Shown piece by piece: positions 1 to 64,000 of a stretch of 64,000 nucleotides of DNA. Source of the DNA: Raja brachyura (Eukaryota). The notes under the pieces are model-generated. The model saw nothing but the letters and a program-made list of their open reading frames with translations, searched no databases and had not been told where the DNA came from. The DNA is taken from positions 36,022,001 to 36,086,000 of the forward strand of contig OY740792.1 of assembly GCA_963514005.1 (NCBI GenBank), given 5' to 3'. The translations under genes were made by a program, and so were the position numbers. Each line of letters starts with the position of its first letter. Position 1 is the stretch's first letter.

Positions 1-889
1 GGTATGGAGAGAAGGCAGGTACAGGATACTGAGTTGGATGGTCAGCCATGATCATATTGAATGGCGGTGCAGGCTCGAAGGGCCGAATGGCCTACTCCTG
101 CACCTAACTTCTATGTTTCTAGAAGGGTCTAAGAAGGGTCTCGACCCGAAACGTCGCCTATCTCCTTTGCTCCTTAGATGCTGCTGCACCCGCTGAGTTT
201 CTCCAGCTTTTTGTGTAACCCTCGATTCTCCAGCATCTGCAGTTCCTTCTTTAACAATTCTATGTTTCTATGTTTCTATAATGCGTAATGGATAATGTAG
301 GGTGATTGCTGGTCGGCATGGACTCGGTGGGCCGAAGGGCCTGTTTCCATGCTGTGTCTCTAAAGTCTAAAGTTTAAGTGAATTGGAGGTGATTTAGGTT
401 GATAAGGGCGGGTTCTCATGTGAGAAACTGAAAGCACATTTAAGGAGAAAAAAAATGGCGTTTGGAAAAACTTTAATGTCTAAATTCTCAACTGAACACA
501 CGTAGTTAGTGATAGTGAACAATAATTGGTACCAATAATTGGTACCTATCTTTGCCTGGGAGTAGATGGATATTATGCTACTTCCTTCAGCTTCTTGGAA
601 CCTTGCTAATGAAGGCGTTGAGAGGCTTGCTGCTTTATTACGAAAGACAACACAATTTGCATAATCGCCTTCCCCAGAAGCTAAATCTGGCCGATAGTTT
701 CATTAGTACACACAAAAGCAGGAGAGTTATTACCCAAACTACAGCTTCTACTTCTCAGACTATGCATATTTCTAGTTTGACTTAACGAGGGCCTGTAAAC
801 AATCCAAAATTTTGATTAAAGGATTATTATTTGTTTTTGACGGTTGCTACAATTTGTAGTAGTCCAAAATCTAGGTGATTTATCTATTC

Positions 890-1610
890 AGAGTCAAAAG
901 AGAGTCAAAGAGTCAAAAGGGTTTATTGTCATGTGTCCCTGACAGGACAATGAAAATCTTTCTTTGCATAGCACAACAGAACATAGAAGGCATTGACCAC
1001 AATTCTATACGTAAATACACCCATGAATTAATAAATTAATAAAGTGCAAATAGCAGATGGAGGGATATTAATGTTCAGAGTTCCGAGCTAAGTTTTATAG
1101 CCTGATGGCTGTGGGGAAGTAGCTATTCTTAAACCGGGTTGTTGCAGTCTTCAGGCTCCTGTACCTTCTACCTGAAGGTAGCAGGGAGATGAGTGTGTGG
1201 CCAGGGTGGTGTGGGTCCTTGATGATGCTGCCAGCCTTTTTGAGGCAGCGACTGCAATAAATCCCCTCGATGGAAGGTAGGTCAGAGCCGATGATGGACT
1301 GGGCAGTGTTTACTACTTTTTGTAGTCCTCTCCTCTCCAGGGCGCTCAAGTTGCCGAACCAAGCCACGATGCAACCGGTCAGCAAGCTCTCTACTGTACA
1401 CCTGTAGAAGTTAGAGAGAGTCCTCCTTGACAGACCAACTCTCTGTAATCTTCTCAGGAAGTAGAGGCGCTGATGAGCTTTCTTAATAATTGCATCTCTC
1501 GGACCAGGAAAGATCTTCACAGATGTGCACGCCCAGGAATTTGAAGCTCTTGACCCTTTCAACCATCGACCCGTTGATATAAACAGGACTGTGGGTCCCC
1601 ATCCTACTCA
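890..1610 (-). mobile_element. Rex/Babar-type LINE 3' fragment
   Basis: ORF 1095-1562 (KKAHQRLYFLRRL...FYRCTVES...IIKDPHHPGH...LLPSGRRYRS...RFKNSYFPTAIRL) is the C-terminus typical of this clade. Short tandem tail (AGAGTCAA)n near 890-917. Similar shorter pieces at about 7220-7370, 17800-18050, 38740-39030 and 45100-45250. Confidence 0.8.
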
Positions 1611-3789
1611 GAATGATTGGTTCAGCGTTTCAGTCAAGTTTCTATTCACACTTGCACCAATTTCTGATTATTTTTTGACTAACCTGTCTACTAGTTCCAC
1701 TGTTCGCATCCTTGTTCGCATCCAGGGGGAAATCCTTTAGGACCGAGATTAGGAGGACTTTTTTCACACAGTGAGTGGTGGGTCTCTGGAACTCTCTGCT
1801 ACAAAGGGTAGTTGAGGCCAGTTCATTGGCTATATTTAAGAGGGAGTTAGATGTGGCCCTTGTGGCTAAGAGGATCAGAGGGTATGGAGAGAAGGCAGGT
1901 ACGGGATACTGAGTTGGATGATCAGCCATGATCATATTGAATGGTGGTGCAGGCTTGAAGGGCCGAATGGCCTACTCCTGCACCTATTTTCTATGTTTGT
2001 AGTCAGCACATCTTCCCCAGCCAACAATGGGCCATTATGGACTCCACCCTTCCTGAGGTAATGTGTAGCCGGCTCTGATTCTGGCCTTTTCTCGCCTCCA
2101 GCCCCTCTCTCCCCTCCCCCTCCCTCCACCTCTATCTTCTAGTCGGAAGAAGGGTCCCAACCCTAAACATTCCCGCTGAGTTACTCCAGCACTTTGTGTC
2201 TATCTTTGGCCCAGTCAAAAAAAAAACCATAAAGTGCTGGTGTAACTCAGATAGTCAGGCAGCATCTCTGGACAACATGGCTAAGTGACGGTTCGAGTCA
2301 GGACCGTCTTTTGACTGATTGTAGGGGTGGGAGAAGACTGGCCCACTCACGACTTTCCTTTGCAATTCAGGATTGATTGATTGCAAAATACAACATGGAA
2401 ACAGGCACTTAGGCCAAACGAGTCCTTGCCGACAATTGACAACCCGTTCACACTAATTCTATGTTATTCTGCTTCCTTTCATCCACTCCCTATACACTAG
2501 GGGCAATTTACAGAGGCCCAATTAACCTACAAACCTTCATGTCTGTGGGATGTAGGAGAAAACCAGGGATGATGGTTGAAGCAGATACGTTAGTGGTCTT
2601 TAAAAGACTTTTAGATACCCATAACCATCCTTGGCAGTGCGTACCAGGCACTCACCACCCTCTGTGTAAACAAATGTGCCCTGGACTTTGGTTTTTTAAT
2701 TATAAGTTTAGTGTATTGTCTCGTTTACCAAGGTACAGTGAAAAGCTTTTGTTGCCTAGTGATACTGTTAATAATTTAGAAATAAAGATCTGTAGATACT
2801 GGTTAATACATAAAGTGCTGGAGTAAGTTCATAAGTCACAGGAGCAGGATTAGGCCATTCGGCCCATCGAGTCTACTTTGTCTTCAATAATGGATGATCT
2901 ATCTCTCAAATTCATCCTCCTGCCTTCACCCTGTAACCTTTGACACTCTTATTAATCAAGAATCCGTCAATCTCTGCTTTAATAATTTACAATTTAACAA
3001 TTTAACAGTCTCGGTTAGAGACCAATGTTGGGAAGCTCCAGTCGCAAGAGGTTCGACTTGCCCCGACCCGCGGTCCGATCGCACGGCGTGGGGGACCTGA
3101 AATCCCCCCGATGCGGGAGCGTGATCGCCCCGATGCAGAGGGCTGGGTCGCCGATTACGGGAGCCAAGATCGCCCTGACAACAGAAGGCTCGAGGCCCCC
3201 GACCACAGGATAACAAAGAAGGGAGAGATTTAACTTTTATTTCGCCTTCCATCACAGCGAGAAATGTGGAGGGGTCACTGTGGTGGATGTTTATGTTAAA
3301 ATGTATTTTGTATGTCTTGTTGCTTTTTATTGGTATGACTATGGCAAATCAATTTCCTCGCATGTTGTAAAACATACTTGGCTAATAAAGTATGATTATG
3401 ATTTAGGGACAATTTACAATTTTTATTGAAGCCTATTGACCTACAAATCTGTACATCTTTCGAATGTGGGGGGGAAACTGGAGCACCCGGAGATAACCCA
3501 CTCGGACACAGGGAGAATGTACAAACTCTGTACAGATAGCACCCGTAGTCAGGATCGAACCCAGGTCTCTGGTGTTGTAAGGCAGCAATTCCACTGCTGC
3601 GCCACTGTGGCACCCTTCTTCGATTCCAAAACGTCACCTATCCATGTTAATAATCTGTTACATTATTGATTGTTTTATATTTATCTGTGTGCTATTGCAT
3701 ATACAGGCCTGTATAGCTCCAGTAAGTACGAGTTTCATTGATTTTTCAGTGACTACAACAATTAAACACTCTTGACCTGTACAGCTTTC

Positions 3790-4543: not shown

Positions 4544-6304
4544 AGTGCATATCCACAATTAGCCAGTCAGCAAGATGCACTCCCCATGAAACTAAACATA
4601 GCGCAGTGCCGCTCAGATAGCAACCTCTGGATGCTCACACATAAATCTTGCCTGAAGGGTTTGTACCATTTCTGCGACAGAAGCAGTGAATGCTCAGAGT
4701 CTCGCTTTCATCTTGACAGTAGATCGTGGCCTCTAACACAGCGCTAAGGTTTTAACAACATTACAAATTCATCTTGTACAGCCACCATTCTAATTGGAAA
4801 GATGTTGCCAGGACTCGAGGGCCCGAGAGGGAGTGGTAGAGCAGGCTAGGATTCTATTCCTTGGAGCGCAGGAGGATAAGGGATGATCTTATAGAGGTGT
4901 ATAAAATCATGAGAGTATATATTGGGTAAACACACAGAGTCTCTTGCCCAGAGTAGGGGAATCTGGAACCAAAGGACATAGGTTTAAGGTAAAGGGGGGG
5001 GGGAAGATTTAATAGGAACCCGAGGGTAACTTTTTTTACACAAAGGGTGGTGGGCGTATGGAACGAGCTGCCAGAGGTAGTTCAGGCTGGTACTATTGCA
5101 ATGTTTAAGAAACGTTTAGACAGGATATTTAGAGCGATATGACTCTGCCTCTACAAACTTAGAGGAGCTGCCTCGTGTTGAATTGGCATTTATCAGTGTA
5201 GATTGGACTCATTACAATCAGGTCCTTTGATTTAGAGTGAGCTGTTCTCGAGATTTGACACTTAACATCTTGTTTATACACAAAATGATAAAGTCAGATA
5301 CAGCATTCAGAGATGCATCAAAACAACCCGATTATCTGCAGAAACAAGGAACTGCAGATGCTGGCTTACAAGAAAATGACACAAAGTGCTGATGTAACAC
5401 TGTGGATCCGGCAGCATGTCTGGAGAACATGGATAGGTGATATTTTAGGTCAAAACCCTTTTTCGGACTGATTGTAGGGGGGGGGGGGGGGGTTGGGGAC
5501 AAAATGTAGAAACATGAAACTGCAGTTGTTGGTTTACAAAAATAATACAAAGTGCAAATGTGACAATGTGCAAACTCCGTACTGACAGCACCCAAGGTTT
5601 GGATCAAACCTGGGTCCCTGGTGCTGAGGCAGTGGCTCTACAAGCTGCACCACTGCGCCTTCTCGCTCTCCTGTCCCAGTGTATAATCTGTCCTCTGACA
5701 TTGGTTTGAAAACTGTTTAAGAAAGAACTGCAGATGCTGGAAAAATCGAAGGTAGACAAAAATGCTGGAGGATCTCAGCGGGTGAGGCAGCATCTATGGA
5801 GAGAAGGAATTGGTGACGTTTCGGGTCGAGACCCTTCTTCGGACTGATTTGTAAACTGTTCTGATTTATGCTTGCTCTTGTAAAAATATTAACTTCTTGT
5901 AAATAAATGTACAACTGACAGACACTCAAGTGCAAAAGCAAATTATGCAATTAAAGGCTGAAATTGGACTTTTAATTAAATGAATTTTAATTTTAAGAAG
6001 CCAGAAAGGTCTAAGGTTTTTATGATGATTGGACCTCCATAATGCTGTCACTAAATGAGGCAAGGGGCAAATTTTACTAAAGAATTGTAGGAAATCAAGA
6101 GAAATTAAACTGCAAAACTCAGTTTTCTCCTTCCAATTATATTAAACAACAAAGCTGTGGAAGATTAATTAGCAAACTGCAGATTTGTCTCGATATATTT
6201 TGCCATTTTGATGCATTATCAGGGTGGTAGCCATGTACATGTCCAAATGTCTTTTTAACATTTCAATAAGTAGACTTGAAAATTGTACCTGGCTCAGAAA
6301 CCTC

Positions 6305-6750: not shown

Positions 6751-7586
6751 CATGGAACATGGATAGGTGACGTTTCACAGAGTGCTGGAGTAACTCAGCG
6801 GGTCAGGCAGCATCTCTGGAGAACATGGATAGATGACATTTCAAAGAATGCTGGAGTAACTCAGCAGGTCAGGCAGCATCTCTGGAGAACATGGATAGGT
6901 GATGTTTCGCATCAGGACCTTTCTTCAGCCTGATTGTGGCGGGGGGGGGGGGGGGGGGGGAGGAGGAGGAAGGGCAGGGCAAACCCTGGCAGGTAGTAGG
7001 TAAACACAGGGGAGGGGAGTGTACCTGAGGAACCTGAAGGTTTAGAGGGATACGGACCAAGTGCGGGCAGGTGGGACTGGTGTAGATGGGACATTTTAGT
7101 CGGTGTGGGCAAGTTGGGCCGAAGGGCCTGTATCCACACTGTATCACTCTATGACTCCGTGAAAAGACGGAAAGTGTGTGGCAAAAGGATTTTTCCTGGC
7201 CTTGGTCCAACCATCTGCTGATCAAAGACCCGCACCACCCTGACCACGCTCTCATCTCGCTGCTGCCATCGGGAAGAAGGTACAAGAGCCTGAAAACCGT
7301 GACCTCCAGGTTCAGGTACAGCTTCTTCCCAGCAACCATCAGGCTCTTGAACACTGCACAACACTAACCCCAGCAACTGACATCTTCTATCAATTGTCTT
7401 TGGCCTGTAATAGGAAAGATGTTTGTCAAGCTGGAAAGGGCACATAGAAGATTGCCAAAACGTGAGAGTCCAAGCTATAGGGAGAAGTTGAGTAGGCTGG
7501 GACTCTATTCCTTGGAGCACAAGAGGATGAGGGGTGATCTTATAGAGATATTTATATTTATGAGAGAAATAGATGGGGTGAATGCA

Positions 7587-8623: not shown

Positions 8624-10794
8624 CATAGTCTCTTGCCCAGAGCAGGTGAACCCAGAGGATATTGGTTTAAGGTGAAGGGGGAAAGATTTAATAGGAATCT
8701 GAGGGGAAACGTTTTCACACAAAAGGTGGTGGGTGTATGGAACGAGCTGCCAGCGGAGGTAATTGAGGCTGAAACTATCCAAAGATTTAGAACAGTTAGA
8801 CAGGCACATGGATAGGACAGGTTTAGAGGGATATGGACCATACACAGGCAGGTGGGACTAGTGTAATTGGGACATGTTGGCAGGTGTGGGCAAGTTGGGA
8901 CGAAGGGCCTGTTTGCACACTGTATGACTGACTCCATGACTATGACTCACTGACTGTATGTCCCAGTTTTACTGATCATTAACTTATTGTATTACTATAA
9001 TTGCACATTATGTGTGTGTTATTGTGTTCGTGGGCCTGTAAAGCTGCACCACATATAAATTTGATTGTCCCGTTATCAATACATATTGATCAAGAAATAC
9101 ATGACTTGAGTAAGGTGGAAAGAATGCAAAGATGATTTATGAGGATGTTGCCAGGACTCGAGGGTCTGCTGCTATTTACCGGAGTTGGCAGGAACCCAGT
9201 GATTCCCACGTGTGAGACACGCAAGGAATTGCAGGTGCTGGAACCTTGAACAAAACACAGTGCTGAAGGAACCTTCTGGCAGCTCTTTCCATATATATAC
9301 CCACCACTCTCTGTGTGAAGAGGTTGCCTCTAAGGTTCCTATTAAATCTTTCCCCTCTCACTTTAAACCTACTTCTGGTTCTTTATTCCCCAACCCTGTG
9401 TATAAAACTCCAGGCATGCACCCTATCTATTCCTCTCATGATTTTATACAATTCTGCAAGATCACTCCTCATCCTCCTGTGCTCCAAGGAATAGAATCCT
9501 GGTCTGCCCAACCTCTCCCTAAAGCTCAGACCCTCAAGTCCTGGCAACATAGTCATAAATAATCTTTACACTATAAAACACAGAAAACAACAATATTTAA
9601 CTCTACCAATTGGGAAAAAAAAGTGAAAAGCAATGTTTCTTAATATCCTTTTCGGAAGATGATGTGAAGTTAACTTCCCACCAAAGCTCCAACTTCATTA
9701 GTATTCAGCCTAACTGCGCTTCTGTGGAATCTTCAGGGGTCAATTCAAAAAACAGTCAACAAACAATATATACCTGAAACAGCAGCAATTTGTAAGGCTA
9801 GGGCCAATATGAGATAATGCTAAAGAACCGGGGAGAAACAGCACAATAAATGAGTCAAAATGTAATAACAAGGGACTGCAGTTGCTGATTTATACCAAAG
9901 ATAGATACACAATGCTGCAGGGTCATATACAAATGTGTATTCTCAGTACCGTTCCACTGTGTGGCAGCACAATGGCACAGCTGGTAGAGCTGCTGCCTCG
10001 CAGCACCAGAGACCCGGGTTTGATCCTAACCTCAGGTGCTGTCCATGTGTGGAGTTTGCACTGTGACTGTTTTCCCTGTGACTGGTTTCCTCCCACATCC
10101 CAAAGGCGTGCAGGTTTAGCGGTTGTAGTTTTGGATCACCAAATCCATGCCAACCATCAATCGCCCGCTCACGCACCCATTCTATGCTATCCCACTTTTG
10201 CATCCACCTCATACACATTAAGGGCAATTTGCAGAAGCTAATTCACCTACAAAAGGTTAATTGCCTGTTGTAAAATTGCTCCTAGTGTGTAAAGAAGTGA
10301 ATGAGAAAATGGGAGAATCTGGAACTAGTTTGAACGGGTGATCTATGGTCAGCGTGGACTCGGTGGGATGAAGGGCCCGTTGCCATGCTGTAGAGACACA
10401 GCAGTTTTGGTTTAGAAACTAAAGCAAAACTTACCAGCTATCAATTTCCTCAGTTAAATATCAAGCAATCTGATCTTGGGTAGGATGATGAAGTGCATGT
10501 AAATTAAACATGTAATATTAATGGATTTCTAAATAATTTGTTGGATGTGAAAATATAATTTTAATTAATTCAGGTTCTTTTTTTTAAAAATCTCATCAAT
10601 TTCAAACAGAAAATATAAGAAACACTCAGTTAGTCAGGGACTAGCTATTAGAAGAAATGGCAAGAGAGAAATCAAAGATGAATGAATATATCAAGGGTGG
10701 ATTTAGTCTGTTGGAAAAGGAAGCATAAAACATTAGTTGGAACGATCAAGGAACACTCCACAATTGGAGAATTGTGTTCATTTCTGATCAGCCG

Positions 10795-11640: not shown

Positions 11641-14399
11641 TGATCTGTCAGATGAATTTTCATTGGTCCTTTTATCGTTATGCTTATGTATAGGCAGTCG
11701 TAGAGTTTTCTGTTTTGTTCAGGAACAATTCAGTTTTGAGTTCAATTTTCCATTTCTGCCGATCATAATTCTCACCTGAATGAACATACAGAACTTGCTA
11801 GTACATAACAACCCTACTAATTATTCTTTAGCTACACGTGTTTCATTATGTTTTCTCTCTTTTTACACACCTTGCCATGTAATTAATTATTATTTGTTAC
11901 AATTCAAAAGCCCAGAGTTAAAAGCAGTCATGAACATGGCTTAAAATCCATCCTTTTAAACTAGTATTTAAAAAAAAAACTATTTTTCGTTCAACAAAAT
12001 TAATATTGAAATAGTATTAGAGACACAAGGAGCTGGAATCTTATGCAAAGCACATGTATGCTGGATGCCAATTAAAAGTTGACGCCTATTTTATACAGGA
12101 GCACATCCATCAGATTTTGAGGTATTTATGTTAGATAGGAAGTGCTCCCATAAGACATACCTCCTTCTTTATTCATATTTCTACGTTATATCTGATGTTG
12201 TGAAAGGCTTCTGACGAAAATGCTCACCACAACTGAAAATAATCACTTGTCAGCATTAAATTAATGTTTTAAAAAAGCATACCCCATGTTAAAGAGGATT
12301 TGAGATTATCTGAGGCAGCTCTTGGATATTCCAATGAATTATTCGGGAGAAGGAGGTAAGAGTGAAATCTTGTATTCCCGCTTGTTCTGACAGATGGCTC
12401 GAAGCTGAACATTCATTACTACTGACACACAGGGATAGTAATTACTGCTGGAAGTCTACAGCTAGAAACACTACTAGCTACAAGCACCATTCAATTCTTC
12501 TCACAAGGTATCTGAATAAAGCTAACTCTCACATCAAGGGATGTTTAAGATGAAGAGACGACACAGATGGAAAGAGAGGAAGATAAAGATCAAGTTTAAA
12601 CAATGGACTTAGAAACGGGAGAGAGACTACGACTGATAGCGACTAAGTTCATTATGTGCGGTAGAGTTGATTAAGAAGCCTCATCAAGGTGAGGGGCACA
12701 ACAGGGAAAGTGCTGATGCAGCACAACACAGGGAGACGGACAGTGCCAGCAGTGTGATGGAGCCATGTTTCGGGACTAACTGCCTCATGTTGGGAAGTGA
12801 AACGTCACCAATCCATTTTCTCCAGAGATGCTGACTGACCCACTGAGTTACTCCAGCATTGTGTGCTTATTTTTAGCAAGAGTTTACATCATGTTTAGAG
12901 TTTAGAGATGCAGCAAGGAAACAAGCCCGTCGGCCCACCGTTCCCACGCCGACCATCGATCACCCGTTTACACCAGTTCCAAGTTATCCCACTGTCACAT
13001 CCACTCTCTACATACTAGGGGGCAATTTACAGAGGCCTATTAACCTACAGACCCGCACGTCTTTGGGATGTGGGAGGAAACCGGAGCACCTGGATGAAAG
13101 CCACACGGTCACAGGGAGAACATGCAAATTCCACACACAGACAGCACCCAAGGTCTGGATCAAACCCGGGTCTCTGGTCCTGTGAGGCAGCACCTCTACC
13201 AGCTGTGTCACCCCTTAATGGTGTCCCTGCACAAGCTACCCAATGTCTATTAGAGTAAGCGAGTAATCAGTATCTTCCAGAGGGAAAAAAGGGCTTTGAA
13301 ATGAAAATTAAACAGTACCTACTTAAAATGTATGTTGCCAACCAGGATGTATTCAATAAACACGTACGGGTATATAGAAAGAAATTGGAGCCTAATGCAG
13401 AGTTGTAAGTAATTACCAGGAAATGTGCTGCCTAAGCAGTAATAAGAATGATTGGTTCATGCATTAGACAATTAAAATATAGCCTCTCAGTGCCAGAGAC
13501 CTGGGTTCAATCCTGACCTCAGGTACTGTGTGTGTGTGGAGTTTGCACGTTCTCCCTGTGACTGCGTGGGTTTCCTCCGGTTGCTCCGGTTTTTCCCCAC
13601 ACCACAAAGACGTGTGGGTTTGCAGGTTAATTGTCCTCTGTAAATAGCCGCTAGTGTGCAGGGAGTGGATGTGGAAGTGGGATGACATAGAACTATTGTG
13701 AACAGGTGATCGACGGTCGGCGGGACTGGGTAAACCAAAGGCCCTGTTTCCACACTGAACCTTTCATTCAGAAAATTAGAATTGAACAGGGAAAGACACA
13801 AAGTGCTGGAGTAACTCAGCGGGTCAGGCAGAATCCTTGGAGAGCATGGATAGGCGACATTTCGAGTCAGGCCCCTTTCCGCTTTCCTTGCTAAACTAGC
13901 ATTTGCATTTCCTTGCTTCTGCACTGAGAATTGAGCAGCACCTATTCTAAAGGTAGACAAAATTGCTGGAGAAACACAGCGGGTGAGGCAGCATCTATGG
14001 AGCGCAGGAAATAATCGACGTTTCGGGTCTTGCACCCGCACCTATTCTAAATGTATTTTACTAAACATGATGCATTTAGCAAATGCGAATATATGGAAAA
14101 CAATTGGGCAGAAAACAGAATGCAGAATTTAACGTCATTAACAGGAAATGTGCTGTCCAAACGGTAACACGAATTAGTGTATTATAAACATGTAGATAAT
14201 TGAAATATTGTCAACCAAGTATTCAGGGCTGCAGAATGTTAATAAGGCAGCAAACAGATTTAGAAGCTTAAATGGCTTGTAATGTACAACAATACTGAAA
14301 ACATACAGGTGCCTGCAAGGCTAGACTGCAGACATATTGATGTATTAAGCCGAGGCAAGTGCATCGCTATCCGACTGAAAAAGAATCTCAGGCACTTAC

Positions 14400-14798: not shown

Positions 14799-17162
14799 CT
14801 GTAAAGTCACCAACAAAATAAAAAAGGTGTTGGTGCCAAAGTCCAATAATTTCAACATCTAAATAGTCAGTGGGAAGACATGTGAAAAAAGACGCTAGGT
14901 GCAGAAGTAACTCAGACTGTTTCTACACTGTCTCTTAAAAGTAAACCAACCTAAAAAAAAACCAACTCTGCGTGCCAGGCAGAATCTGTGGAGGGAATGG
15001 ACAGGCGGATCCGTTCCCAGCGTCAATTTCCGTGGCCGATCAGCAGGTTGAATTTGCCCCATGCGGTCGGGGCTCTGGAACCAACAGATCTGTTCTCATC
15101 GTCCACTTTGCGGGATAGATAATATGGCTAGGCTCTAGAACCAAGGAAAATCGGTGGTGGACCTGTGGCAAGATTTTTACTGAACTGTGTACAAAAAAAA
15201 ATGTCACTGTACCTAGTTCCATGTGACAATAAAATACCTCTGAACCAATGGGCATCTGAAATCTGTTTCTATGTTATTTCATATTCAAATTTACTTTCCT
15301 TTATAAAAAAAAACCTCCTTTATGCTTTTCATTACATGGGGTTGCTGAGCCTTCTGGCAGGTTATTAGTTTTTTCCTTTTGTGTAACATTATTGCCAACT
15401 TCTCTTGTTTGTCATTTTCGGCCAATCTCTCCAGTTGGGTTTTTGTGCCAGAAAGAGATGTATTTTTGTGATAAACTGCATTAATTCATGAAATGTGCAG
15501 TCATTGTGTGTTTCATCACCAACCTTTGTGGTGTAGTTCCCCAATCTCTGTAGCCAGCTCCATAATTTGCTTTGATTACATTCATGATTGAACAAAATCA
15601 TTTTCAATCTTTTCATAAAATTCTATCATGGATGGTTACTCTTTTCTACAGCCAGCTTAATTACATAATTATCAATTAACTCACTCTCTTTGTAAAACAC
15701 TAAAATAGTTGGCTCCCAAGTCAACATATGGACCTGGGAAATCTAGCCATATTGAACAATATCAGTAGCATATTACAAATATTTACATATTTAGCTCACA
15801 ACCCAATAGGATGAACATTAAGTTCTCCAGTTTTAGGATAATAATAACCAACACACATACCCCCCCCCCCCCCCCGCCCTCTTCCCTGTGCCCCAACTGG
15901 AAGTGCACACATTTCTCCCGCTACCCACTACCCTGCTCCCCTTTCCATCCCCCCACCCATCACCCCCTGTCATCTGTATCCTTTACTGGCGACACATTTC
16001 ACGACTCTTCAATCCTTCTCTCCTTACCTCACTACCTTTTGCCTCTTCATCTCTCGGCTTTGGACAACCATTAGTCAATCACCCCCCCCCCCCCCCCCCA
16101 TCTCACTTGCATCCACTCGTCTGAAGAAGGGTCACAAGCCGAAACATCACCTATTCCTTCTCTCCAGAGACGCTGCCTGTCCCGCTGAGTTACTCCAGCT
16201 TTTTGTGTCTATTATCACTTGCCAGGCTTTCTCCTGCCCTACCCATCTTCCAGCTTTTTCCCTGTACTTCATCGGTCTGAAGAAGGGTCCCAACCCTAAA
16301 CATCACCTTTCCATATCCTCCACAGATACTGTCAGATCCAGCACTCATTCCAGACCTTTGTGTCTATTTTTTTGTCAAGGAGCCTCTGCAATCCCTTGTG
16401 CCTACATCTTCCAACACTTCTTTTGGATAATCATGTACTCACCAGACTAAAACGCAAGATAGTTCAGTTAAACAACAAAGTGCTGGTGTAACTCAGTGGG
16501 TCAGGCAGGATCACAAGGAGAGGTGGCGTTTTGGGTTGGGACACTTCTTCAGAAGACTAGAAATATCACCTGTCTATGTTCTCCAGAGATGCTGCGTGAC
16601 CTGTTGAGATACTTCAGCACTTTGGGCCTTTTCCTCTAGACTACCATCTGCTGTTCCTTGTTTCTACCTTTCCCCAAATCTATTGCTGCCTTTACAAAGC
16701 ACCTCTCTCATCCAGCGCCAGCTTTAACATGAATTTGTAAAAAGGTCCCAACCCAAACCCGGCCATTGATCACCGAAGTATACTAGCCCTATCCTACACA
16801 CTAGGGACAATGTACAATTTTTACCAAGGCCAATTAACCTACAAACCTTTTTGGTCAAAGATCGCACGTCTTTGGAGTATGGGAGGAAACATGAGCACCT
16901 GGGGAAAACCCACGCAGTCACAGGGAGAACATATAAACACTGTACAGCCAGCACCTGTTGTCAGGATTAAACCCAGGCCTCTGGCACTGTAAGGCAGCAA
17001 CTCTACCGCTGCGCCACTGTGCAACCCCTTTGTTAAGTTGTTAGAGGTTATCTAAAACTGGAGAAGTCAATGTTCATACCATGCTAGATATTTTCATTTC
17101 ATATCATTTCATATCATATCACAGATATTTTCAGTTCTCAGGTCTTTGGTGCTGACACTTAC

Positions 17163-18945: not shown

Positions 18946-18973
18946 GACGTTTCGGGCCGAAACCCTTCTTCAG
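18946..18973 (-). ncRNA. Minimal hammerhead ribozyme core in a Penelope-derived terminal repeat (best-preserved copy)
   Basis: Minus strand reads CTGAAGA-A-GGGT(TTCG)GCCC-GAAA-C-GTC: CUGANGA box, stem II, GAAA box, palindromic ACGU stem III and a GUC cleavage triplet. Stem I is only about 2 bp by eye. Confidence 0.62.
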
Positions 18974-19113
18974 GCTGATATCAGGTCAGGACCCTTCTTC
19001 AGAGTGGGGAGGAGGAGAAAGCTGGGAAAAGAGAGGTGGGGGCAGGACAAAGCCTGGAAAGTGACAGATGGGTACAGGTGAGAGGGACATTAAATGGCAG
19101 CTGAGTGGAGTAA

Positions 19114-20718: not shown

Positions 20719-20772
20719 GGGGTGCAAGATTGCAACCTTCCCGTGGTCCGCCCTGTTTCGACTAATGCAATC
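20719..20772 (+). ncRNA. Compact HDV-like self-cleaving ribozyme (predicted)
   Basis: P1 GGGGTG/CGCCCT with a G1-U wobble, P2 GATTGCA/TGCAATC (7 perfect bp), P3 ACC/GGT, L3 TTCCCGT, P1.1 partner G20755, minimal P4 region TTTCGA, J4/2 C(20762)TAA. All elements are in the canonical nested double-pseudoknot order. Confidence 0.8.
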
Positions 20773-20855
20773 AACTCGACGTGCACAAACAGAAGATCAA
20801 ATAGAACAAGTTGTCCAACTACTTTAGGCTGTGCACGCCACACGAAAGAAGAAGA
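20719..20855 (+). mobile_element. 137-bp non-autonomous retroposon (SINE-like) with 5' HDV-like ribozyme, 3' stem-loop and (GAA)n tail
   Basis: Perfect 11-bp TSD AGGGGAGAGGT (20708-20718 and 20856-20866). Tail GAAAGAAGAAGA. It interrupts a Penelope remnant. 3' stem CGTGCACA (20780-87) pairs with TGTGCACG (20830-37). Confidence 0.85.
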
Positions 20856-41219: not shown

Positions 41220-41220
41220 T

Positions 41221-47800: not shown

Positions 47801-49097
47801 TTTTACATATCCTAATCATTTACCATTATACAATTGAGCAAAGATGATGATTACTTAAATTAATATATGTCATAATAGCAATTTGCATTTATAGTGTTTT
47901 AACTTAGTTAAATACCCCCAAAATCTTTCATAAGCCACAAATGACAACTGTTGGAGGAATGTTAGATTGATCGCAAGATACAGCATGGAAACCGGCACTT
48001 CAGCCCACGCTAACCATCGATCACCTATTCACACTAATTCTGTTATCCCACTTTCTCATCCACTCCCTACGTGCAAGGGACAATTTACAGAGACCAATTA
48101 ATCTACAAACTCACAGGTCTTTGGGATAAGGGAGGAATCTGGAGCACCCGGAGGAAACCCACAAGGTCACAGAGAGAACATGCAAACTCCACACAGTTAG
48201 CACCTGAGGTCAGGATCGAACCTGGGTCTCCAGCGCTGAGGCAGCAGTTCTACCACAGACACAAAATGCTGGAGTAACTCAGCGGGATAGGCAGCATCTC
48301 TGGAGAGAAGGAATGGGTGACTTTTCGGCTCGAGACCCTACTCCAGAGGTGCTGCCTGTTCCGTTGAGTTACTCCAGCATTTTATGTCTATCTTCGGTTT
48401 AAACTAGCGTCTGCAGTTATTTCCTACACAGTTCTACCACAATATACAAACTGCTTATTTTTAATTCTCACAGCAAAGACCAAAGCCCTAAGGACATCAC
48501 CATTCATAATGTTCCAGGCCCCACCAATGGATCCCAACCCGAAACGTCACCTATTCCATGTTCTCCAGTGACGTTGCCTAACCCGCTAAGTTACTCCAGC
48601 ACTTTGCGTCTGTTGTTGTGAACCAGCAACTGCAATTCCTTGTGTCAACAGTGCACGAGTTGTTCTACACGTCTTCTTGCACTGTACACTGTGCCATCAA
48701 ATAGCCAATGTAAATGATGTTGAACCCAATATATTTTACTACTGTGTCAATAGATCAGTGTACAACTCTAAATACTCCCTTGGGATATGATCCAAATTCA
48801 TAAAAGGCAAAATCTATAACATTATTTTCATACATTGTCACAATGTAGTGGATATAATAAAGACAATTGCATAGAAACATAGAAAATAGCTGCAGGAGTA
48901 GGCCATTCGTCCCTTCGAGCCTGCACCGCCACTCAATATGATCATGGCTGATCATCCAACTCAGTATCCCGTACCTGCCTTCTCTCCATACCCCCTGATC
49001 CCCTTATCCACAAGGACCACATCTAACTCCCACTTAAATATAGCCAATGAACTGGCCTCAACTACCTCCTGTGCTAGAGAATTCCAGAGAATACGTA

Positions 49098-49391: not shown

Positions 49392-50875
49392 TTTACTCCA
49401 ACACCAAGATCCACAAACATGTAATGCTTACAACACTGATATCATCACATCCTCTGACTATCTGAATCATTCACATGTGAATGTATAAGTAACCCAGACA
49501 CTCACAGCATGAAAATCAAGTTATAAACATATCTAAAAATATCTGATGTAACCAGAAAGAGAGGCTTATGCGCAAGCCAGAAATAGTTGTACCTTACACA
49601 TAGGGACGCAGATTATTGCACTGGTTTCTGGACATTTCCGGTCCAGCAGTCCAAATTTCTCAAGATGACGCCACGCGCAGCAGCCTCGCCAGCAGCTCGT
49701 GTGTTTCTTTGGACTTGTTGTTTTCAGCATGTCTGAATGTATGTCTCCCTGTGTGCCTTGTGTGGGGGGTGCGGGGGGGGAATAGGAGAAACCGTTTCCA
49801 GTTACTTACCTCGATGGAGATGTGACCTTTAGCCCTCTCGCGGCCTAACGACTGGATTGGTGCAGCCTTTCCGACCGGACACCGGCCCAGAACCCAGAGC
49901 TGTGAGCCTTTGCCGGGGGTCGCCAGTGTTGGAGCTCCGGGGGCCTGCTGACTTTACCATCGTGGAGCTCGGTCTGTGGAGCTTCTAGCCGCAGGCGCTG
50001 CGCGGACTTGGAGCATCACGGAGCTTTGCCAAGGATCACCAGAAGAAGTGCTTCGACCACGGGGCCTGTGGCCTTGGCATCATGAAGCCGCAGTCTCCAA
50101 TAGGAAGGGAACGGTTTGGGAATTCCACGCCGCGGAGTGTTCTGATCCGTCCCGACGTGGGAGTTTCGATCACCCCAGTGAGAGGGTCTGTACATCGGGC
50201 CATCTGTAGCAGCAACTGCGGAAGGTTCAAGGCCCCGACCACGGGTGAATGGAGGAGGAAGATTGACTGGACGTTTGTGCCTTCCACCACAGCAGGAGGT
50301 GCTGGTTCCTCTGTGGTGGATGTTTTTTTTTAATGTTGAATTCTGCTATGAATTCTGTTCTTTCTTGCTTGGAGAAGACTGCTCATCCGCCTAGCTTACT
50401 TGTGAGTGAAACTGCATCATGACGAATGGCTAATACAGCACCAGGACATCATGAAGCAGATGGCACCAATCAAGCCCGAGTTGGAGTGAACGCCATAGAT
50501 AGATTGATAGAACACAGGAACAGGCCCTTCAGCCCACAATATCCATGCCCAACATGAAGACAAGATAAACTAATCCCCCCTTTCCCGACTCTCAGTCTGA
50601 AGAAGGGTCTCGACCCGATACATCACCTATTCCTTTTCTCCAGAGATGCTGTCTGACCCACTGAATTACTCCAGCTTTTTGTGTCTATCTATCTTTGGTT
50701 TAAACCAGCATCTGCAATTTCTTCCAACACTCCTCTGCCTGCACCTGATCCATATGCCTGCATCCCCTACATATCCACGTGCCTCTCTAAAAGCTTTGTA
50801 AATGCCACATATCTGGGGGAGTTAAATAAAAATTGAGATACAACATTAATACGTCGGGTTGTAAGCTGTCCAAGA

Positions 50876-53350: not shown

Positions 53351-55582
53351 AGGGTCACCACCTTGTTGTTTAGTTCTTAGTTTAGTTTAGAGATGCAATA
53401 TTGAAACAGCCCCTTTGGCCCACTGAGTCTGTGCCAGACCAACGCCCACCCATTCACACTAGTTCTATCCTACACACTCGGGACAATTTTTACAGTGGCC
53501 GATTAACCTACAAACCTGCACATCTTGTGTGAGCTTCAGATCCAATTTCACATTTTAATTGGAAAATCAAGACTCCTATGGCCAGAGAAGGACTAGTACC
53601 TACTTTACTTTCTCATTTGACATTTTTACTTTTCTTTTCACTTTTTCAAAACGTTATGTTTTCTTGCTTTCTTTCCTGCCCGTTTGCAGTTAGTCTGAAA
53701 AATGATCCCGGTGCAAAACATCACCTGTCCATGTTCTCCAAAGATGCTGACTGACCCACCAAGTTACTCCAGCACTGTTTTTTTTGGTATAACCAGCAAT
53801 TGCAGTTCCTGGTTATCACTTTACCATATGTCGATTTAAAAACTCACCAGCAATAGAAGAGAAAAGGTAGAGTTTTATGGGTCCATGCCGACAAAGATGC
53901 CCCATCTACGCTAGTCCCATTTGCCTACCTTTGGCCCGATATCCTTCCAATCCTATCCTACCCATGTATATATCCAAATAGCTTTTGAATGTTATAGTAC
54001 CTGCCACAACCACCTCCTCTGGCAGCTCGTTCCATAAACCCAACAGTCTCTGTGTGGATAAAGTTGCCCCTGGGGTTCCTATAAAATCTTTCCCTTCTCA
54101 CCATAAACCTATGCCCTCTGGTTCTTGATTCCCCAGCTCTGGGTACAAGACTCTGCATTCACCCTATCTATTCTCCATTTTCTTCATTAAACAAAAGTAA
54201 AAATTGTAAGCTTGAAACAGAAGCAGAAAATCATGCAAGTCAAACAATACTCAATCAGCATCTGTGAACGAAACAGGTTAATGGTTAAGGTACATCTGCT
54301 TCATCAGCAATGTCTTGCAGCATTATGCATCACAGCTGGGATTAGAATAATGCTGACTGAAATATCTCGGCTCTTTCTGCCTTTAAGGACAGATGGGTTT
54401 GAATTAAACTGAGCCTGGGATCAAGTTTCACACAGTAGGATTACATTTCTGCAGCGACTCAACTTTCACTTCGAAGAACAGGATTTAACTTCCACCCAAA
54501 TCGGTTCAAACACCAAAGGTACAGTGATATTTGAGTTACCATGCAGCCATACAAGTAAAAAGAACACAATACACAATAGAATTTAACATAAACATCCATC
54601 ACAGTGGAATCAACATTTCTCACTGTGATGGAAGGCGATAAATTCAGTCAATTTTCCTCCTTTGGCCTTGACCCTCTGCCGTCGCCGTTACGGACGACCC
54701 GATGTACAAACCCTCTCGTCGGGATGATCGAAACTCCGACGTGGGGATGGATCAGAACACACTCCGCGGCTTGGAGTCCCTGAATCGGCCGCTTCTTACC
54801 GGAGACCACAGCTTCATGATGTTAAAGACCACGGGCCAGCGGTCGGAGCACTTCTTCTGGCGATCCCCGGCAAGGGATCCCAGGCTCTGCTATGGTAAAT
54901 CCGCGCCCGGGGCTAGAAGCTCCGAAGACCGCTGCAGTCAGCAGGCCCCCGCGGTCGGAGCTCCAACACTGGCGACCCTTGGCAAAGGATCCCAGGCTCC
55001 GCGATGGTAAGTTCACGCCGCGCCTGCTGCCAAAGTTCTGGGCCGGTCTCTGGTCTGGAGAGGCCGCACCAAACCAGGTGTTAGGCCGTGAGGGGGGCGA
55101 AGATGCAACAAGGATAAAGTTGCATCTCCATCGAGGTAAGTGAGTGAAAACGGTTTCCCTCTATATCCCCCCCCCCCCCCAACAGACATACCGAGAAACA
55201 TTAAAACATACATTTAGACGCACTAAAAATAACAAAAATAGCAGAAACAAGACCTTCGGCCTAAAGTCCTCTCAGAGGAAAGTTCTTGAGCCGAAACGAT
55301 TGTACCTCTTCATATTTCTAGTTCCCCGACTCTCAGTTTGAGGAAGGGTCTGGACCCAAAATCACCTATTCCTTTTCTCCAGAGATGCTGCCTGACACAC
55401 TGAGTTACTCCAGCATTTTTGTGTCTATCTTCAATGTAAACCAGCGTCTGCAGTTCCTTACTACACAATGATTAAGCTGTTAGCTGCTTTCCAATACCGA
55501 GCATGACACTTGACAGTCAATGCCAACAGGCCGCATCTCAATCAGAGTTTGTCCTCAATTGGTGTTGAGCTGTAAACATTGT

Positions 55583-57745: not shown

Positions 57746-60700
57746 AAATGTTGCTCGCTGTTTAGAGAGTCATACAGCATGAAAACAGGCCCCTCAGCCC
57801 ATCCTGCCTACACTGACCAACATGCCCTGTCTACACTAGTCCCAACTACCCAGGTTTGGCCGATATCCTTCTAAACCTATCCTATACATGTATTAGTCCA
57901 AATGTCTTTCTAATGCTATTAATGTACCTGCATCAGCTACCTCCTCCAGCAGCTCAATCCATATACCCACCACCAATGAAAATGTTCAGAGGTTCTAGGA
58001 GCAGAATTAGGCCATTCGGCCCATCAAATCTATTTCACCATTCAATCGTGCCTTCCCTCTCAACCCCATTCTCCTGCCTTTCCCCTATAATTCCTGTCAC
58101 CTGTACTAATCAAAGTTGCCCCTCAGTTTCCTATTAAATCTTGCCCTCCTCACCTTAATACAAAGGGAGTGGACTTTTCTGCAGTTTTTGGACTTTCCTT
58201 CAATACTTCTGATTCAGAGAGTGATATTTAGTTTGGAGATACAGCAAGGAAACGGGCCCCACAGTGGCCAGCAATCACCGGTTCACACTAGTTCAAGAGT
58301 CAATATGCACCGAAACAGAACAATGACATTTTTACTTGCAGTTCTGTGTTATCCCACTTTCCCATCCAACTCCCTACACACTGGGGACAATTTTACAGAC
58401 GCCAATTAACCTACAAACCTGCATGTTTTTGGGAGGTGGGAGGAAGGTGGAGCATCAGGAGTAAACCTATGTGGTCACTGGGAGAATATGCAAACTCCAC
58501 ACACACCGACAGGATCGAACCCGGGTCTCAGGTGCAGCGAGGCAGTGGGTCTACCTGCTGCTCCATTGTGTCGCTGCTGTACACCCATCTACTCTGGTAA
58601 CAGATGCCGATAGTCCTTACGCAAAGAGCACAATCTAAAACTAACACTTGATACGTAGTATTGTGTGGAATTTACCCAGCCTCCAGCAATGTTTACCAGA
58701 ATGAGAAAGAATTTTGTGTAACAGCATTAATTGTAGTGTTATCTTTGCAAGTCTGTCTTGGGGGAAAAAAAGTCATTGTTGGCGCAGCAACTTACTGTCA
58801 TTATGACAATCGATTCATCAAAAGAAGACATTACTCCCGCATACGGAATTGTATAGACAGTGGGACCAGACAGCTGTCTCAGACGGAGGGCAATTTACAG
58901 GAAAAAGTCAGTCCTGCCTTATGCGGATGTCAGCTAATAAAAAACCCATTAATGCTCTTCAATCTCTCTCTAGGTATACATCACCAAAGTGGTTCATCCA
59001 ATATAGTAAATCCTTGCAACAACGGACCGCTCTATAACTGATAGACACAAAACGCTGGAGTAACTCAGTGCGTCAGGCAGCATTTCTGGAGAAAATAGGT
59101 GCCGTTTAGGTCGAGTACCTTCTTCAGATTCTGTAAACCCACAAACGGATATAACCTATACAACGGATTTTGGTGATAGCGGACCAAGGCTCCCGTTGCA
59201 TCACCCCACCCCCCCCCCCCCCCCCCCTCACCCCCACTTCCGTCAGTTACCCAACGTGGCGGGAACTTCCGGTTGCAGGAGCGGAGAGAGCGAGCAGCAC
59301 AAAGGTGGCGTGAATACCAGGCCCGTCCCCAGCGCACTGTATGTCGGGGCGCTGCGACTCCCAGGCCTGCGATTACCCGCTTGTCCCCCCCCCCCCCAAC
59401 AAATGCAAAATTCCGATTAATTCAGTCTGCTTAAATATAGAAGTGAGGCAACTTATAACATTTAAAAACTATACTTTAGTTTAGTTTATTATTGTCATGT
59501 GTACCGAGGTGCAGTGAAAAGCTTTCTTTGCTGCGTGCTATCCTATCAGCAAAAAGACTATACGTATGAAAAAAGAATATCTGCTGTTCCTTCGTACAAA
59601 TGTGTTTAGGTTCTTGTTTATTATTGTTATGTGTACCAAGGTACAGTGAAAAGCTTTGATTTCTATGCTATCCAATCAGATCAGTTAATAGAACAAAACA
59701 CAACAAAGTCGAACTTAGTATAATAGGTAGGGCAAAGGGGAAGATGCAGAGTGCAGAATATAGTTGAGGCAGGTACTATCGCAACATTTAAGAAACATTG
59801 CACCCGAAAGTCGGAAGTACCCGACTGCTGGTGTTGTCTGTAAGGAGTTTGTACGTTCTCCCCATGACCTGCGTGGGTTTTCTCCAAGATCTTTGGTTTC
59901 CTCCCACTCTCTAAAGACGTGCAGGTTTGTAGGCTATTTGGCTTGGAATAACAGTAAATTGTCCCTGGTGTGTGCAGGATGGTGTTAACGTGTGGATGGC
60001 AGGTCGGCATGGACCCGGTGGGCCGAAGGGCCTGTATCTCTAAACTAAACATTTAGACAGGGCCCGTTTCTACGCTGTATCTCTAAACTAAATATAATAT
60101 TGAAAGTTGCTATATCATGGCAATATCATATTCATTGCTACAAAAAGTATGAAAGATTATCAAATAAATGACAAGCGTAGGGGGGCATATAAACTAACAA
60201 TAGTAGGAAAATGCAGAAATGGAAATTCAATTTATGAATACAGTACTAACATAAACGTAGCAAACGACTTTTGAATTTTGTGCAGTTATCACATATCCAA
60301 ATGCAGCTTTCAGAAGGCTTTTGCTGGGGTATTAAATAAGAAGCTTCTCTGTACAATTGAAGCCCTAGGTATTAGTGGAAAGCTAAAATTCTGAATTGAG
60401 AATGAATTTGTGGGTGGATTTGGATAAGCCTGGAGTGCCACACGCATAAATGCTGAATGTCGACTGAAGGCAATCTGCATCTACACCTTGTGTGAGGAGA
60501 CCCAGTTGGTAGGTTGGCTCATAAATATTGGTCAGAAACAGATTGTGAGGAGGATTTACAATAGACTGCATCTACACTGTTTGTATTACTCATTATCACC
60601 TTCCCCACAGCCAACAATGGACCATTGAGGGCTCCACCTTTCCTTGACCATGATTGCTGGCTTTGATCTGTCTTTTTGCATTATCTTTCATTAATTTGTT

Positions 60701-63700
60701 CTATGTACCTTTTCATATCTCTGGATTCCCTCTCCCCCGGGTCTCACTCAGAAGAACGGTCTTGATTCAAAACGTCACCTATTTCTTTTCTCCGGAGATG
60801 CTGCCTGACCGGCTGAGTTACTCCAGCTTTTTGTCTATCTTCGGTGTAAACCAGCATCTGCAGTTTCTTCCTACACAGACTGCATCACGGCCTGGTTCGG
60901 CAATTTGAACCCCCAGGAATGAAGCAGATTATGGAGAGTGATGAACTGCCGGGTCTATCATGGGTACTGACTTTCCCACCATCAAAGGGATCGACAGGAG
61001 GCATTATCAAAGACCTTGACCACCCTGGCTGTGCTCTCTTTTCTCTCCCATCATTGGGAAAAAAACATAGAAATTAGGTGCAGGAGTAGGCCATTCGGCC
61101 CTTCGAGCCTGCCCCGCCATTCAATATGATCATGGCTGATCATCCAACTCAGTACCCTGTACCTGCCTTCTCTCCATACCCCCTGATCCCCTTAGCCACA
61201 AGGGCCACATCTAACTCCCTCTTAAATAAAGCCAATGAACTGGCCTCAACTACCGTCTGTGGCAGTTGGTGCAGAAAGCCTGAAAACCATGACCACCAGG
61301 TTCATGTGCAATGTATAGTTTAATTGACCCCTGTAAATTGCCCCTAATGTGCAGGGATTGATGAGAAAATGATGGGATAACGTGGAACTAGTTAGTGTGA
61401 ACGGGTGATCGATGGTTGCCATAGACTTGGTGGGTCGAAGGGCCTGTTTCCATCCAAACTAAATTAAACCAGATCTGGATTGTGAGCTTGAATTATGGAG
61501 AAAGGTTAGATAGGCCGGGATATTTTTCTTTAGAGCATGGGAGGCTGAGGAGTGACCTTATTGAGGTGTATAAGATCATGAGGGGCATGGATAAAGTGAA
61601 TAATCACACTGCCTTTTTCCCCCCATGGTAGAAGATACTAAAACTAGAGGGTAGAGGCTTAAGGTGAAAGCTTAGAGATTGGAAACATTAATTTTGATTT
61701 ATGGTTTTTCTTGTCCCAATTCAACAAATGGAAAAATATTTAGATGGGGCCATATAGGGCAACTTTTTCCATTCAGAGGGTAGTCTGCACCTGGAATGAG
61801 CTGCCAGAGGAAGCTAGAGAAGCGGACATAATTACGACTTTTAAAAGACAATTGGACAGAGATATAGATACAAAGAGTTTACAGAGATATGGGGCTAAAT
61901 ATGGAGTTTAGCCTAGTATGCCAACTTGATCGACGTGGACAAGATGGATGGGCCGATGGTACACACCTTTGACTCTATGACCAGTGGAAAAATAATGTAA
62001 GACAAGTAATCTTTAGACTTTACTTTATATTTCAGAAATACAACACAGCGGTAGAGGTGCTACCTTACAGCGCAAGAGACCCGGGTTCGATCCCGACTAC
62101 GGCTGCTGTCTGTACGGAGTTTTATGTTCTCCCCATGACCATGTGAGTTTTCTCTGGGTGCCCTGGTTTCCTCCCACACTCCAAAGACATACAGGTTTGT
62201 AGATTCATTAGCACCAGTAAAATTGTAAATTGTCCCAAGTGTGTGTGGGATAATGTCAGTGTGTGGGGGTCGCTGGTCAACACGGTTCCAATGGGCCGAG
62301 AGGTCTGTTTCCGCGCTGTATCTTATATAAAAAATTGAACTTGGCATCATGCTTGGCATGGACATTATGGGCCGAAGGGCCAGTTCCCGTACTGTGGAGC
62401 TCTATGACTATATCTTCTTGGACTGATATTTAAAGACTCCAAAGGATAGGTTGGAGAGAATTATCTCAAAACATGAAGCTTGTACCATAGAATGGCAACG
62501 GAAATCCATCCCATCTGGAAGAGTCTTACATTATTTGTCCCACTGTAAACATGTAGCTGTGAGTGTACAAACATCGACTCTGCTCAAGAACAAAGCTGTG
62601 GAGAACTAATGTACATCTGTCCATCACCATTTGCAGTCAGGAAAATGAAACAGGATTTTGGTTTTTAATCTTCACATGCTTTTCACATTAGAGATGGCTT
62701 TGCGGCAATACTGACACGACATCAACCACATCTTACAGACTCCAACCATGCACAATACCATTGCCACCGACTGCTTGAATTATGTATCATGTCTGAGACT
62801 CATTGTAAAGCCCCAACTCCATCATATATATTTCATTGTAGTTTGACAACAGATACAGCCAATAACATAGACATAACCAGCTATACTGGATGGCCCATGA
62901 TGCAGCGGGTAGAGCTGCTGCCTTAAAACGACAGAGATCCGGGTCCGATCCTCACTACGAGTGCCGTCTGTACGGAGTTTGTATATTCTCCCCATGACTG
63001 CGTGGGTTTTCAACGGGTGCTCTGGTTTCCTCCCACACTTCAAAACTTGCAAGTTTGTAGGTTAATTAGCCGATAAAAATTGTACATTGTCCATAGTGTG
63101 TTGGATAGTGCTAGTGTACAGGGAACACTGGTCGGCACAGACCTGGTGGGCCGAAGCGCCTGTTTCGTGCTGTATCTCTAAACTCAACTATACCCGGGTT
63201 CGATCCTGTCTACGTATCTGTGTGCTTTGCAAATTCTCTCTGTGACCGCGAGGGTTACCTCTGGGTGCTCCAGTTTTTTCTTTCACATCCCAAAGACGTG
63301 CGGGTTTGTAGGTTAATTAGCCCTCTGTAAATTGCCCCAAGCGTGTTGGGAGTGGATGAGCAACTGGGATAACATTGATCTAGTGTGATGGGGTGATCAA
63401 TGGTCGGCGTGGACTCGGTGGGCTGCAGGACCTGTTTCCACGCTGTATCTATCCAACAACAAATAATGATCAGCCATGATCACATTGAATGGCGGTGCTG
63501 GCTCGAAGGACCGAATGGCCTACTCCTGCAACTATTGTCTAAAAGGATGCAGGGACTTTGGCTGTGGCTCACAGCGGCAGCACAATGGCGCACAGGTAGA
63601 GTTGCTGCCTTACAGCGTCAGTGACTTCACCACGGGTGCTGGCAGTACAGAGTTTGCACGTTCTCCCTGTGACCACGTGGGTGTTCTCTGGGTGCCCTGG

Positions 63701-64000
63701 TTTCCTCCCACACTCCAAAGACGTACAGGTTTGTAGGTTAATTTGCACCTGCAAAATTGTAAATTGCTCCCTGTGTGTAGGGTAGTGCTAGTGTACAGGG
63801 TGATCGCTGGTCAGCACAGAAGGACCTGTTTCCACACTATCTCTAAAGTCTAACGTCCATGGAGGAAGGAACTGCAGATGCTGGTTTACATGAAGATAGA
63901 CGCAAAGTGCTGGAGTAACTCAGCGGGTCAGGCAGCATCCCTGGGGAAAAGGAATAGGTCCCGACCCAAAACATCACCAATCCATGTTCTCCAGAGATGC

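Follow-up and report, generated by a model that had tools for sequence, protein, structure and literature searches.

A short repeat scattered through a 64,000-nucleotide stretch of the Raja brachyura genome (contig OY740792.1, positions 36,022,001 to 36,086,000; hereafter the window) is the hammerhead-plus-tail end of the pseudo-long terminal repeat (pseudo-LTR) of a Penelope-like element (PLE), probably of Neptune rather than Nematis type. The short copies of this end are probably run-off products of reverse transcriptase (RT) acting on uncleaved element RNA, a reading supported by linkage of the repeat to an open reading frame (ORF), two 3' ends, a 5' hotspot, target-site duplications (TSDs), and same-source inverted pairs with a single tail.

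A profile search of the window returned 61 repeat hits (6,099 bp, ~9% of 64 kb) and a refined profile returned 57 (5,507 bp, 8.6%; 30 minus, 27 plus), with no hits to either profile on reversed-sequence controls. These counts agree with the dozens of copies claimed in an original prediction made from the letters alone, but the copy length of 120-200 bp given there does not hold: single copies measure ~95 nt (tail-less) or ~130 nt (tailed), and units longer than ~130 nt are head-to-head pairs, nine of which lie in the window. Forty unselected 10-kb stretches (400 kb) of the same 2.7-Gb genome contained 149 hits, at a density of 0.37 per kb and covering 3.6% of the bases, which extrapolates to ~1 million end copies genome-wide. 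Exact genome matches to two patterns, a young 54-mer core pattern (19,634) and a downstream anchor (33,180), put young near-identical insertions in the tens of thousands. Near-identical truncated copies in such number suggest recent or ongoing activity of the Neptune-type family; nearly all genomic hammerhead copies are decaying.

The connection to a PLE was visible from the coding side. The remnant at 21037-21420 (minus) encodes a GIY-YIG domain interrupted by two stops. Among the 30 best loci retrieved with this coding DNA alone, counting the one in the window, 28 carried the repeat downstream in the same orientation, 42-560 nt away, compared with 2, 4, and 2 of 30 control positions. Both GIY-YIG remnants named in the original prediction are real, though the repeat follows this one at a distance of 331 nt and does not directly adjoin it; Pfam gave no hit on either window remnant, both being too short. 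The second unit, at 35320-35740, sits inside a 2.35-kb DNA transposon with terminal inverted repeats (TIRs) and 5-bp duplications, in the window and at three of six other loci, and because it is a passenger there it is not independent evidence of PLE linkage. A protein search for the element itself (50,766 candidates, 150 scored, 20 loci fetched) recovered open frames of 1,202-1,226 aa at 8 of the 20 loci, in young elements of 4.2 kb, and the seven frames compared were 96.4-99.8% identical. These frames carry DKG, RT motifs, a CX4CXXC linker (residue 1070), and YIGET, and match RVT_1 (E 5e-4) and GIY-YIG (E 2e-3) in Pfam, both below gathering cut-offs. At five of the eight loci a full repeat stands both before and after the ORF, and the repeat is therefore the pseudo-LTR end, as expected from its predicted membership of a PLE; the ORF ATG lies 164 nt after C3 of the core, beyond the tail. 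Other PLE hallmarks were present, namely pseudo-LTR tandems, an inverted 5' copy, an optional tail, and TSDs. A CX2-5CxxC linker between RT and endonuclease marks Neptune or Nematis (PMC8557442), and only Neptune and Poseidon PLEs are reported from vertebrates (bioRxiv 2026.07.22.740005), so the family probably belongs to Neptune.

Several features of the elements stand apart from this argument. The intact ~1,190-aa ORF at loci L092-L099 (G000 C3, C6, C11, C29, C1, C1476) has a long Pro/Ser/Thr-rich insert ahead of the RT, and the L096 leader has an out-of-frame upstream ATG at +51, before the ORF ATG at +164. The untranslated region (UTR) from stop codon to core (e.g., 35540-35647) is pyrimidine-rich, varies in length between subfamilies, and ends in a branch-point-like motif plus CAG, intron-like as in D. 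virilis, with no spliced form found. At L100, about ten 54-bp units repeat head to tail across positions 662-1155; they consist of the hairpin part that follows the core, without the hammerhead core itself, and this array is a minisatellite born from the pseudo-LTR.

The 3' ends of the repeat are sharply defined, with 20 of 30 young loci ending at +90-95 and 8 at +127-130 from C3, and these two ends, 35 nt apart, are the optional 35-nt tail that is a PLE hallmark. We mapped 5' ends from the exact anchor downstream of the cleavage site, fetching 93 of the first 100 anchor loci and keeping 91 copies after removing duplicates. About half started in one narrow zone (46 at -5..+1 and 1 at -7), 9 between -11 and -299, 11 inside the core, and 4 at +32..+38, while 20 reached at least 400 nt into the ORF; none of the 91 started at +29, the first base past cleavage. 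The end rate per base is ~90x higher in the hotspot (-5..+1) than over the next 289 nt upstream. The sequence at the hotspot fits the initiator consensus YYANWYY. An internal promoter within the pseudo-LTR is known for D. virilis Penelope (PMC2377424). Among the 19,634 exact young 54-mers, the four upstream bases are kept in 9,888 and ten in 5,898, and the 2,497 with another base at -4 have G in 1,305, A in 759, and T in 433. The G share of 52% compares with 29% expected (~47% after discounting inverted junctions), and contig joints in one other run likewise insert G before the -3 A; this excess is as expected of a copied cap, but is suggestive only.

A spliced leader was considered in view of the 3'-splice-like CAG before the core. 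No upstream exon was common to 155 flanks, of which 83 matched nothing, 53 were inverted, and 19 were either UTR in sense orientation or pieces of tandems. The contig joints listed included no clear GT..AG joint spanning the UTR, so the idea is rejected for now.

The original prediction held that solo repeats had amplified as a separate non-autonomous family. A SINE-like version of this, in which stubs would be transcribed from an internal promoter and the PLE protein would copy them in trans, is improbable, even though the putative start site and the two sites at which RT begins all lie within the stubs, upstream UTR is missing from ~70% of young cores, and pseudo-LTR sequences can suffice in trans in rotifers (PMC3846280). 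Tail frequency is common to short and long young copies (13/29 versus 25/62, p 0.82), and the same haplotypes occur in 29 long and 51 short ones, a small sample from one subfamily. ORF-linked members or UTR remnants occur in every main subfamily examined. The flanks and TSDs of inverted pairs are unique, which means that each pair formed anew. A separate family is therefore not supported, given this sharing of variants and tails, the lack of starts at the cleavage site, the few tandems, and an autonomous source family with an identical end.

The label retrozyme-like fares worse. Were ribozyme-processed monomer or circular RNAs the transposition intermediate, copies would not place the core at their 5' end, unsplit by the cut, with 0/91 starting at the cleavage site and only 7 tandem against 23 head-to-head arrangements among the 149 sampled hits. 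We regard this as very unlikely despite the type I hammerhead motif, the tandem 54-bp units built from part of the repeat at L100, and the report in one chondrichthyan of non-LTR retrozymes, which derive from PLE pseudo-LTRs (bioRxiv 2026.07.22.740005); the motif also lacks canonical stem I or loop contacts, and its modelled dimer fold lies 13 kcal/mol above the minimum.

Adjacent copies are mostly head-to-head, the remaining sampled arrangements including 3 tail-to-tail, and the window has 9 head-to-head, 3 tandem, and 1 tail-to-tail. Across all fetched loci we found 45 young pairs, 42 of them classifiable, and all 42 join one tailed to one tail-less arm; TSDs of 10-18 bp, at distinct targets, flank 35 of the 42. 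The long inverted insertions L096, L101, L103, and L104 obey the same rule. Relative to the reference, the arms of pairs have 21 differences in common, where 10,000 shuffles give 1.3; one pair of another subfamily contributes 6 of the 21. One-sided tails and palindromic junctions have been described qualitatively (PMC3846280, PMC8557442). With a third of copies in fold-back pairs, introns carrying them would yield double-stranded RNA.

These observations fit a scheme in which the PLE mRNA would start just before the core of the upstream pseudo-LTR, and RT would copy the uncleaved RNA from two internal start sites to its fixed 5' end, likely the transcription start. Priming at the two sites of the 5' leader, in the upstream pseudo-LTR, would give 95- or 130-nt stubs, and priming in the downstream pseudo-LTR ordinary 5'-truncated copies. 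Both nicked DNA strands may prime, one per start site, so that two complementary DNAs (cDNAs) would reach the RNA 5' end and join via the near-palindrome before the core into head-to-head pairs. A more specific and more doubtful proposal is that twin priming on one uncleaved capped RNA is how PLEs integrate: a dimeric RT-endonuclease would prime one target strand at each tail end, the second cDNA would displace the first, both would run off at a start 3-5 nt before the core, and they would anneal through the near-palindrome at the RNA 5' end. If true, twin priming alone would explain the tail, the inverted pseudo-LTR, and about a million stubs, the 5' hammerhead, left with a 2-bp stem I only, would be protein-gated or non-cleaving, and the young intact skate family would be a Neptune system for testing it.

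Both the hotspot and the pairs could instead arise from an RT stop or DNA-level processing at the near-palindrome (fold-back self-priming, endonuclease resolution), with pairs as hairpin fold-backs. Palindromic junctions are common (one exact junction occurs 721 times in the genome), an inverted arm lies next to 22 of the 47 hotspot copies, and self-priming, which also predicts arms of the same source and hence shared variants, has been proposed for head-to-head PLE palindromes (PMC3846280). However, the other 25 hotspot copies have no inverted partner and end at the same place, the G excess before -3 is left over, and in vitro RT initiates on RNA at both ends of the tail (PMC11167929), making this an unlikely alternative. 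Other observations also count against run-off on uncleaved RNA. Clean TSD+G junctions number 2/30, 11/30 "G" junctions are inverted partners, and filler is frequent at junctions; the exact start is uncertain because 5' ends spread over 6 nt and copies reaching -4 (3,990) exceed those stopping at -3 (2,497). The transcription start is putative, the public data consulted for it being assembled contigs of presumed RNA origin. The 91 young copies all derive from a single contig, within its first 4.4 Mb; not every pair is independent (shared arm, duplicated, three-arm clusters), and some stubs may be re-mobilised.

The hammerhead is, on comparison of its consensuses, a genuine minimal-type motif that appears to be selectively maintained in source elements. 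All seven predicted 28-nt cores lie at the coordinates and strands given. Under a strict minimal-hammerhead descriptor, the copies at 18946 (minus) and 35648 (plus) were the only 2 accepted in the window; the 400-kb sample yielded 20, or ~135,000 by extrapolation to the genome, and reversed controls 0. Of the two cores described as intact, 18946-18973(-) passes and 46308-46335(-) fails in stem II; among those called near-intact, 35648-35675(+) passes and the other four have core or stem III changes. An Rfam scan of the window gave 19 matches at E<=5, none of them to a hammerhead family; its hairpin hits are the inverted pairs. The motif nevertheless fits the minimal type I hammerhead of PLE terminal repeats in the text and Fig. 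S3 consensus of PMC4209133, as predicted, and all subfamily consensuses carry the core boxes, extra base, stem II, palindromic stem III, and NUH. Stem I, already suspected to be short, has 2 bp (G-C plus U-A/U.G, the third position being A.C in 346/378 copies), fewer than the usual minimum of at least 3 pairs. Stem II variants that keep pairing exist as a one-sided U-A to U.G change in 22/445 copies, and no two-sided change is a main type; across subfamilies that closely resemble one another, the changes in stems I and II were one-sided (U-A/U.G) only. Clustering 452 near-full copies (about 209 young) on downstream columns gave 5-6 consensuses, which differ at 0/11 catalytic, 1/14 stem, and 15-17/58 downstream positions (p 0.01-0.03 for core plus stems, 0.05-0.10 for core alone). 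The core is thus weakly more conserved than its flanks, at source-element level, a constraint in which promoter or protein-binding roles could share.

Efficient cleavage of the naked RNA is unlikely. The modelled dimer hammerhead fold reaches -6.7 kcal/mol and the most stable dimer fold -19.7 kcal/mol, both by nearest-neighbour energy alone, and the 2-bp stem I would be expected to cleave poorly unless paired and protein-assisted. Type III topology was rejected on inspection, the upstream partner for stem III being absent. In the predicted fold of the 132-nt tailed stub, the tail end pairs with the core's 5' half (z -1.49, not significant; 19/200 shuffles as good).

A ribozyme at this site is itself expected, as minimal hammerheads are known in PLE pseudo-LTRs, mostly as leftovers of truncated copies. 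Cervera and De la Pena 2014 (PMC4209133) describe most such motifs as single leftovers with low activity, and the skate motif shares with theirs CUGANGA plus an extra base, G10.1-C11.1, GAAA, a palindromic loop-less stem III, a pyrimidine-rich 5' flank, the pseudo-LTR location, and mostly single genomic copies from truncated PLEs; a 2-bp stem I is listed in Fig. S3 for Drosophila, Culex, and Oikopleura. It differs in its stem I pairs and 4-bp stem II, in ~1 million copies versus the thousands reported, and in its host, cartilaginous fish being absent from the 56-motif alignment of that paper. Neptune PLEs with endonuclease (PMC8557442, PMC3846280) likewise have a single RT-linker-GIY-YIG ORF with CX2-5CxxC and DKG, partial-tandem pseudo-LTRs, inverted 5' copies, TSDs, and an optional 30-40-bp tail on one end; distinctive in the skate, relative to these accounts, are the half of young copies that stop within 6 nt at the hammerhead 5' edge and the one-tail rule in 42/42 pairs. 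For PAc, a Poseidon element of Anolis (Frangieh 2024, PMC11167929), the tail is likewise bounded by two RT start sites, both DNA strands are primed, unprocessed RNA is used without cleavage-site ends, and the hammerhead needs protein; PAc belongs to another clade, and its ORF starts in stem II, unlike that of the skate element. Non-LTR retrozymes (PMC7229834; bioRxiv 2026.07.22.740005) share the type I hammerhead, the PLE pseudo-LTR origin, and non-coding short copies, but form 150-450-bp head-to-tail tandems with typically canonical hammerheads and circular RNAs (PMC7229834), whereas the skate copies are 95/130-bp ends, scattered or paired head to head, that carry a minimal motif. A literature search, with Repbase/Dfam and subscription papers outside its reach, did not find the family described in skates or sharks. 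PLE integration and the role of the hammerhead are open questions (PMC8557442, PMC11167929), and the sharp end rules seen here (two 3' ends, one 5' hotspot, no cleavage-site ends, tail/no-tail pairing) constrain models and can be tested in vitro.

Table 1. Copies of the PLE end and associated elements in the window.
Positions	Strand	Feature	Context
127..258	+	young-subfamily PLE end copy, tailed; core G5>A-type change; in short repeat, ~13-bp duplication	
2140..2324	.	tail-to-tail pair, both tail-less (2140-2209 +, 2218-2324 -)	
5337..5477	-	tailed copy and poly-C UTR remnant	
5710..5850	-	tailed copy; core 5815-5842 with U4>C	
6776..6937	-	two tail-less copies, partial tandem	
9863..9920	-	3' fragment, tailed	
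12799..12878	+	copy without 5' half of core	
13776..14029	-	two tail-less decayed copies (13776-13877, 13947-14029)	
14964..15007	-	fragment of repeat	
16119..16400	+	two copies: 16119-16219 tail-less, core 16121-16148 damaged; 16271-16400 tailed	
16463..16664	.	head-to-head pair: minus arm tail-less, plus arm tailed	
18771..19006	-	tandem of three pieces; strict core 18946-18973, stem I 2 bp	
20626..21420	-	Neptune-type PLE, 5'-truncated: GIY-YIG remnant 21037-21420 (2 in-frame stops), UTR, hammerhead end 20626-20709	
22302..22430	+	tailed copy and UTR remnant	
22543..22673	-	tailed copy	
23679..23905	.	head-to-head pair: minus tail-less, plus tailed; target duplication	
27058..27412	-	two decayed copies (27058-27096, 27328-27412)	
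29476..29589	-	tailed copy, decayed	
30020..30155	+	tailed copy; core 30026-30053 without U ahead of cleavage site	
31542..31605	-	3' fragment, tailed	
32438..32529	+	tail-less copy	
32824..32991	.	head-to-head pair: minus tailed, plus short	
33577..33616	+	fragment, core only	
34469..34553	+	tail-less copy	
34953..37305	.	non-autonomous DNA transposon, 2.35 kb, hAT5-like; 17-bp imperfect TIRs, 5-bp TSD	
35320..35739	+	GIY-YIG C-terminal remnant (35320-35499), UTR, tail-less hammerhead end, strict core 35648-35675	DNA-transposon passenger
36405..36482		repeat copy inside the 2.35-kb DNA transposon that also carries the 35320 unit	
38156..38293	+	tailed copy	
41987..42213	.	head-to-head pair: minus tail-less, plus tailed	
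42507..42563	-	3' fragment, tailed	
42802..42968	.	head-to-head pair, decayed	
45857..46057	.	head-to-head pair without cores: minus tailed, plus tail-less; target duplication	
46204..46439	.	head-to-head pair; tailed minus arm holds core 46308-46335 (stem II mismatch)	
48255..48433	.	head-to-head pair: minus tail-less, plus tailed; target duplication	
48529..48649	+	tailed copy	
50586..50730	+	tailed copy; core 50597-50624 damaged in GAAA	
52276..52326	-	tail fragment	
53685..53816	+	tailed copy	
55327..55472	+	tailed copy and UTR remnant	
59032..59130	-	tail-less copy	
60739..60879	+	tailed copy and UTR remnant	
63859..64000	.	head-to-head pair, truncated by window end	

The window also contains part of a host gene. 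A host-gene exon is 97% identical to a little-skate IGSF3-like protein, and residues 137-715 of that protein map to four exons at 14281-23558 (-), so the statement that minus-strand copies are sense in the IGSF3 pre-mRNA applies to this interval; the window yielded no exons for residues 1-136 or 716-1169. Between the mapped exons, 7 copies are sense and 4 antisense (p 0.55, not significant) and one strict core is sense; cleavage of the pre-mRNA by sense copies is not supported.

The transposon at 34953-37305, also seen at L056-L061, holds the captured PLE fragment and pieces of short interspersed elements (SINEs); ~15 of the 20 best loci for the 35320 unit share it, and its hAT5-like label follows the 5-bp TSD length (PMC12730594). 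Other abundant repeats (e.g., 9968-10049, 13559-13663, 32205-32284, 40449-40656) have tRNA-like SINE heads and a V-SINE-like core, and ARAGORN found no tRNA. These SINEs, which we take to be HE1/HER1-like, share a 3' end with a long interspersed element (LINE), fragments of which also occur in the window. A minisatellite array with a 14-bp unit occupies 41190-41580.

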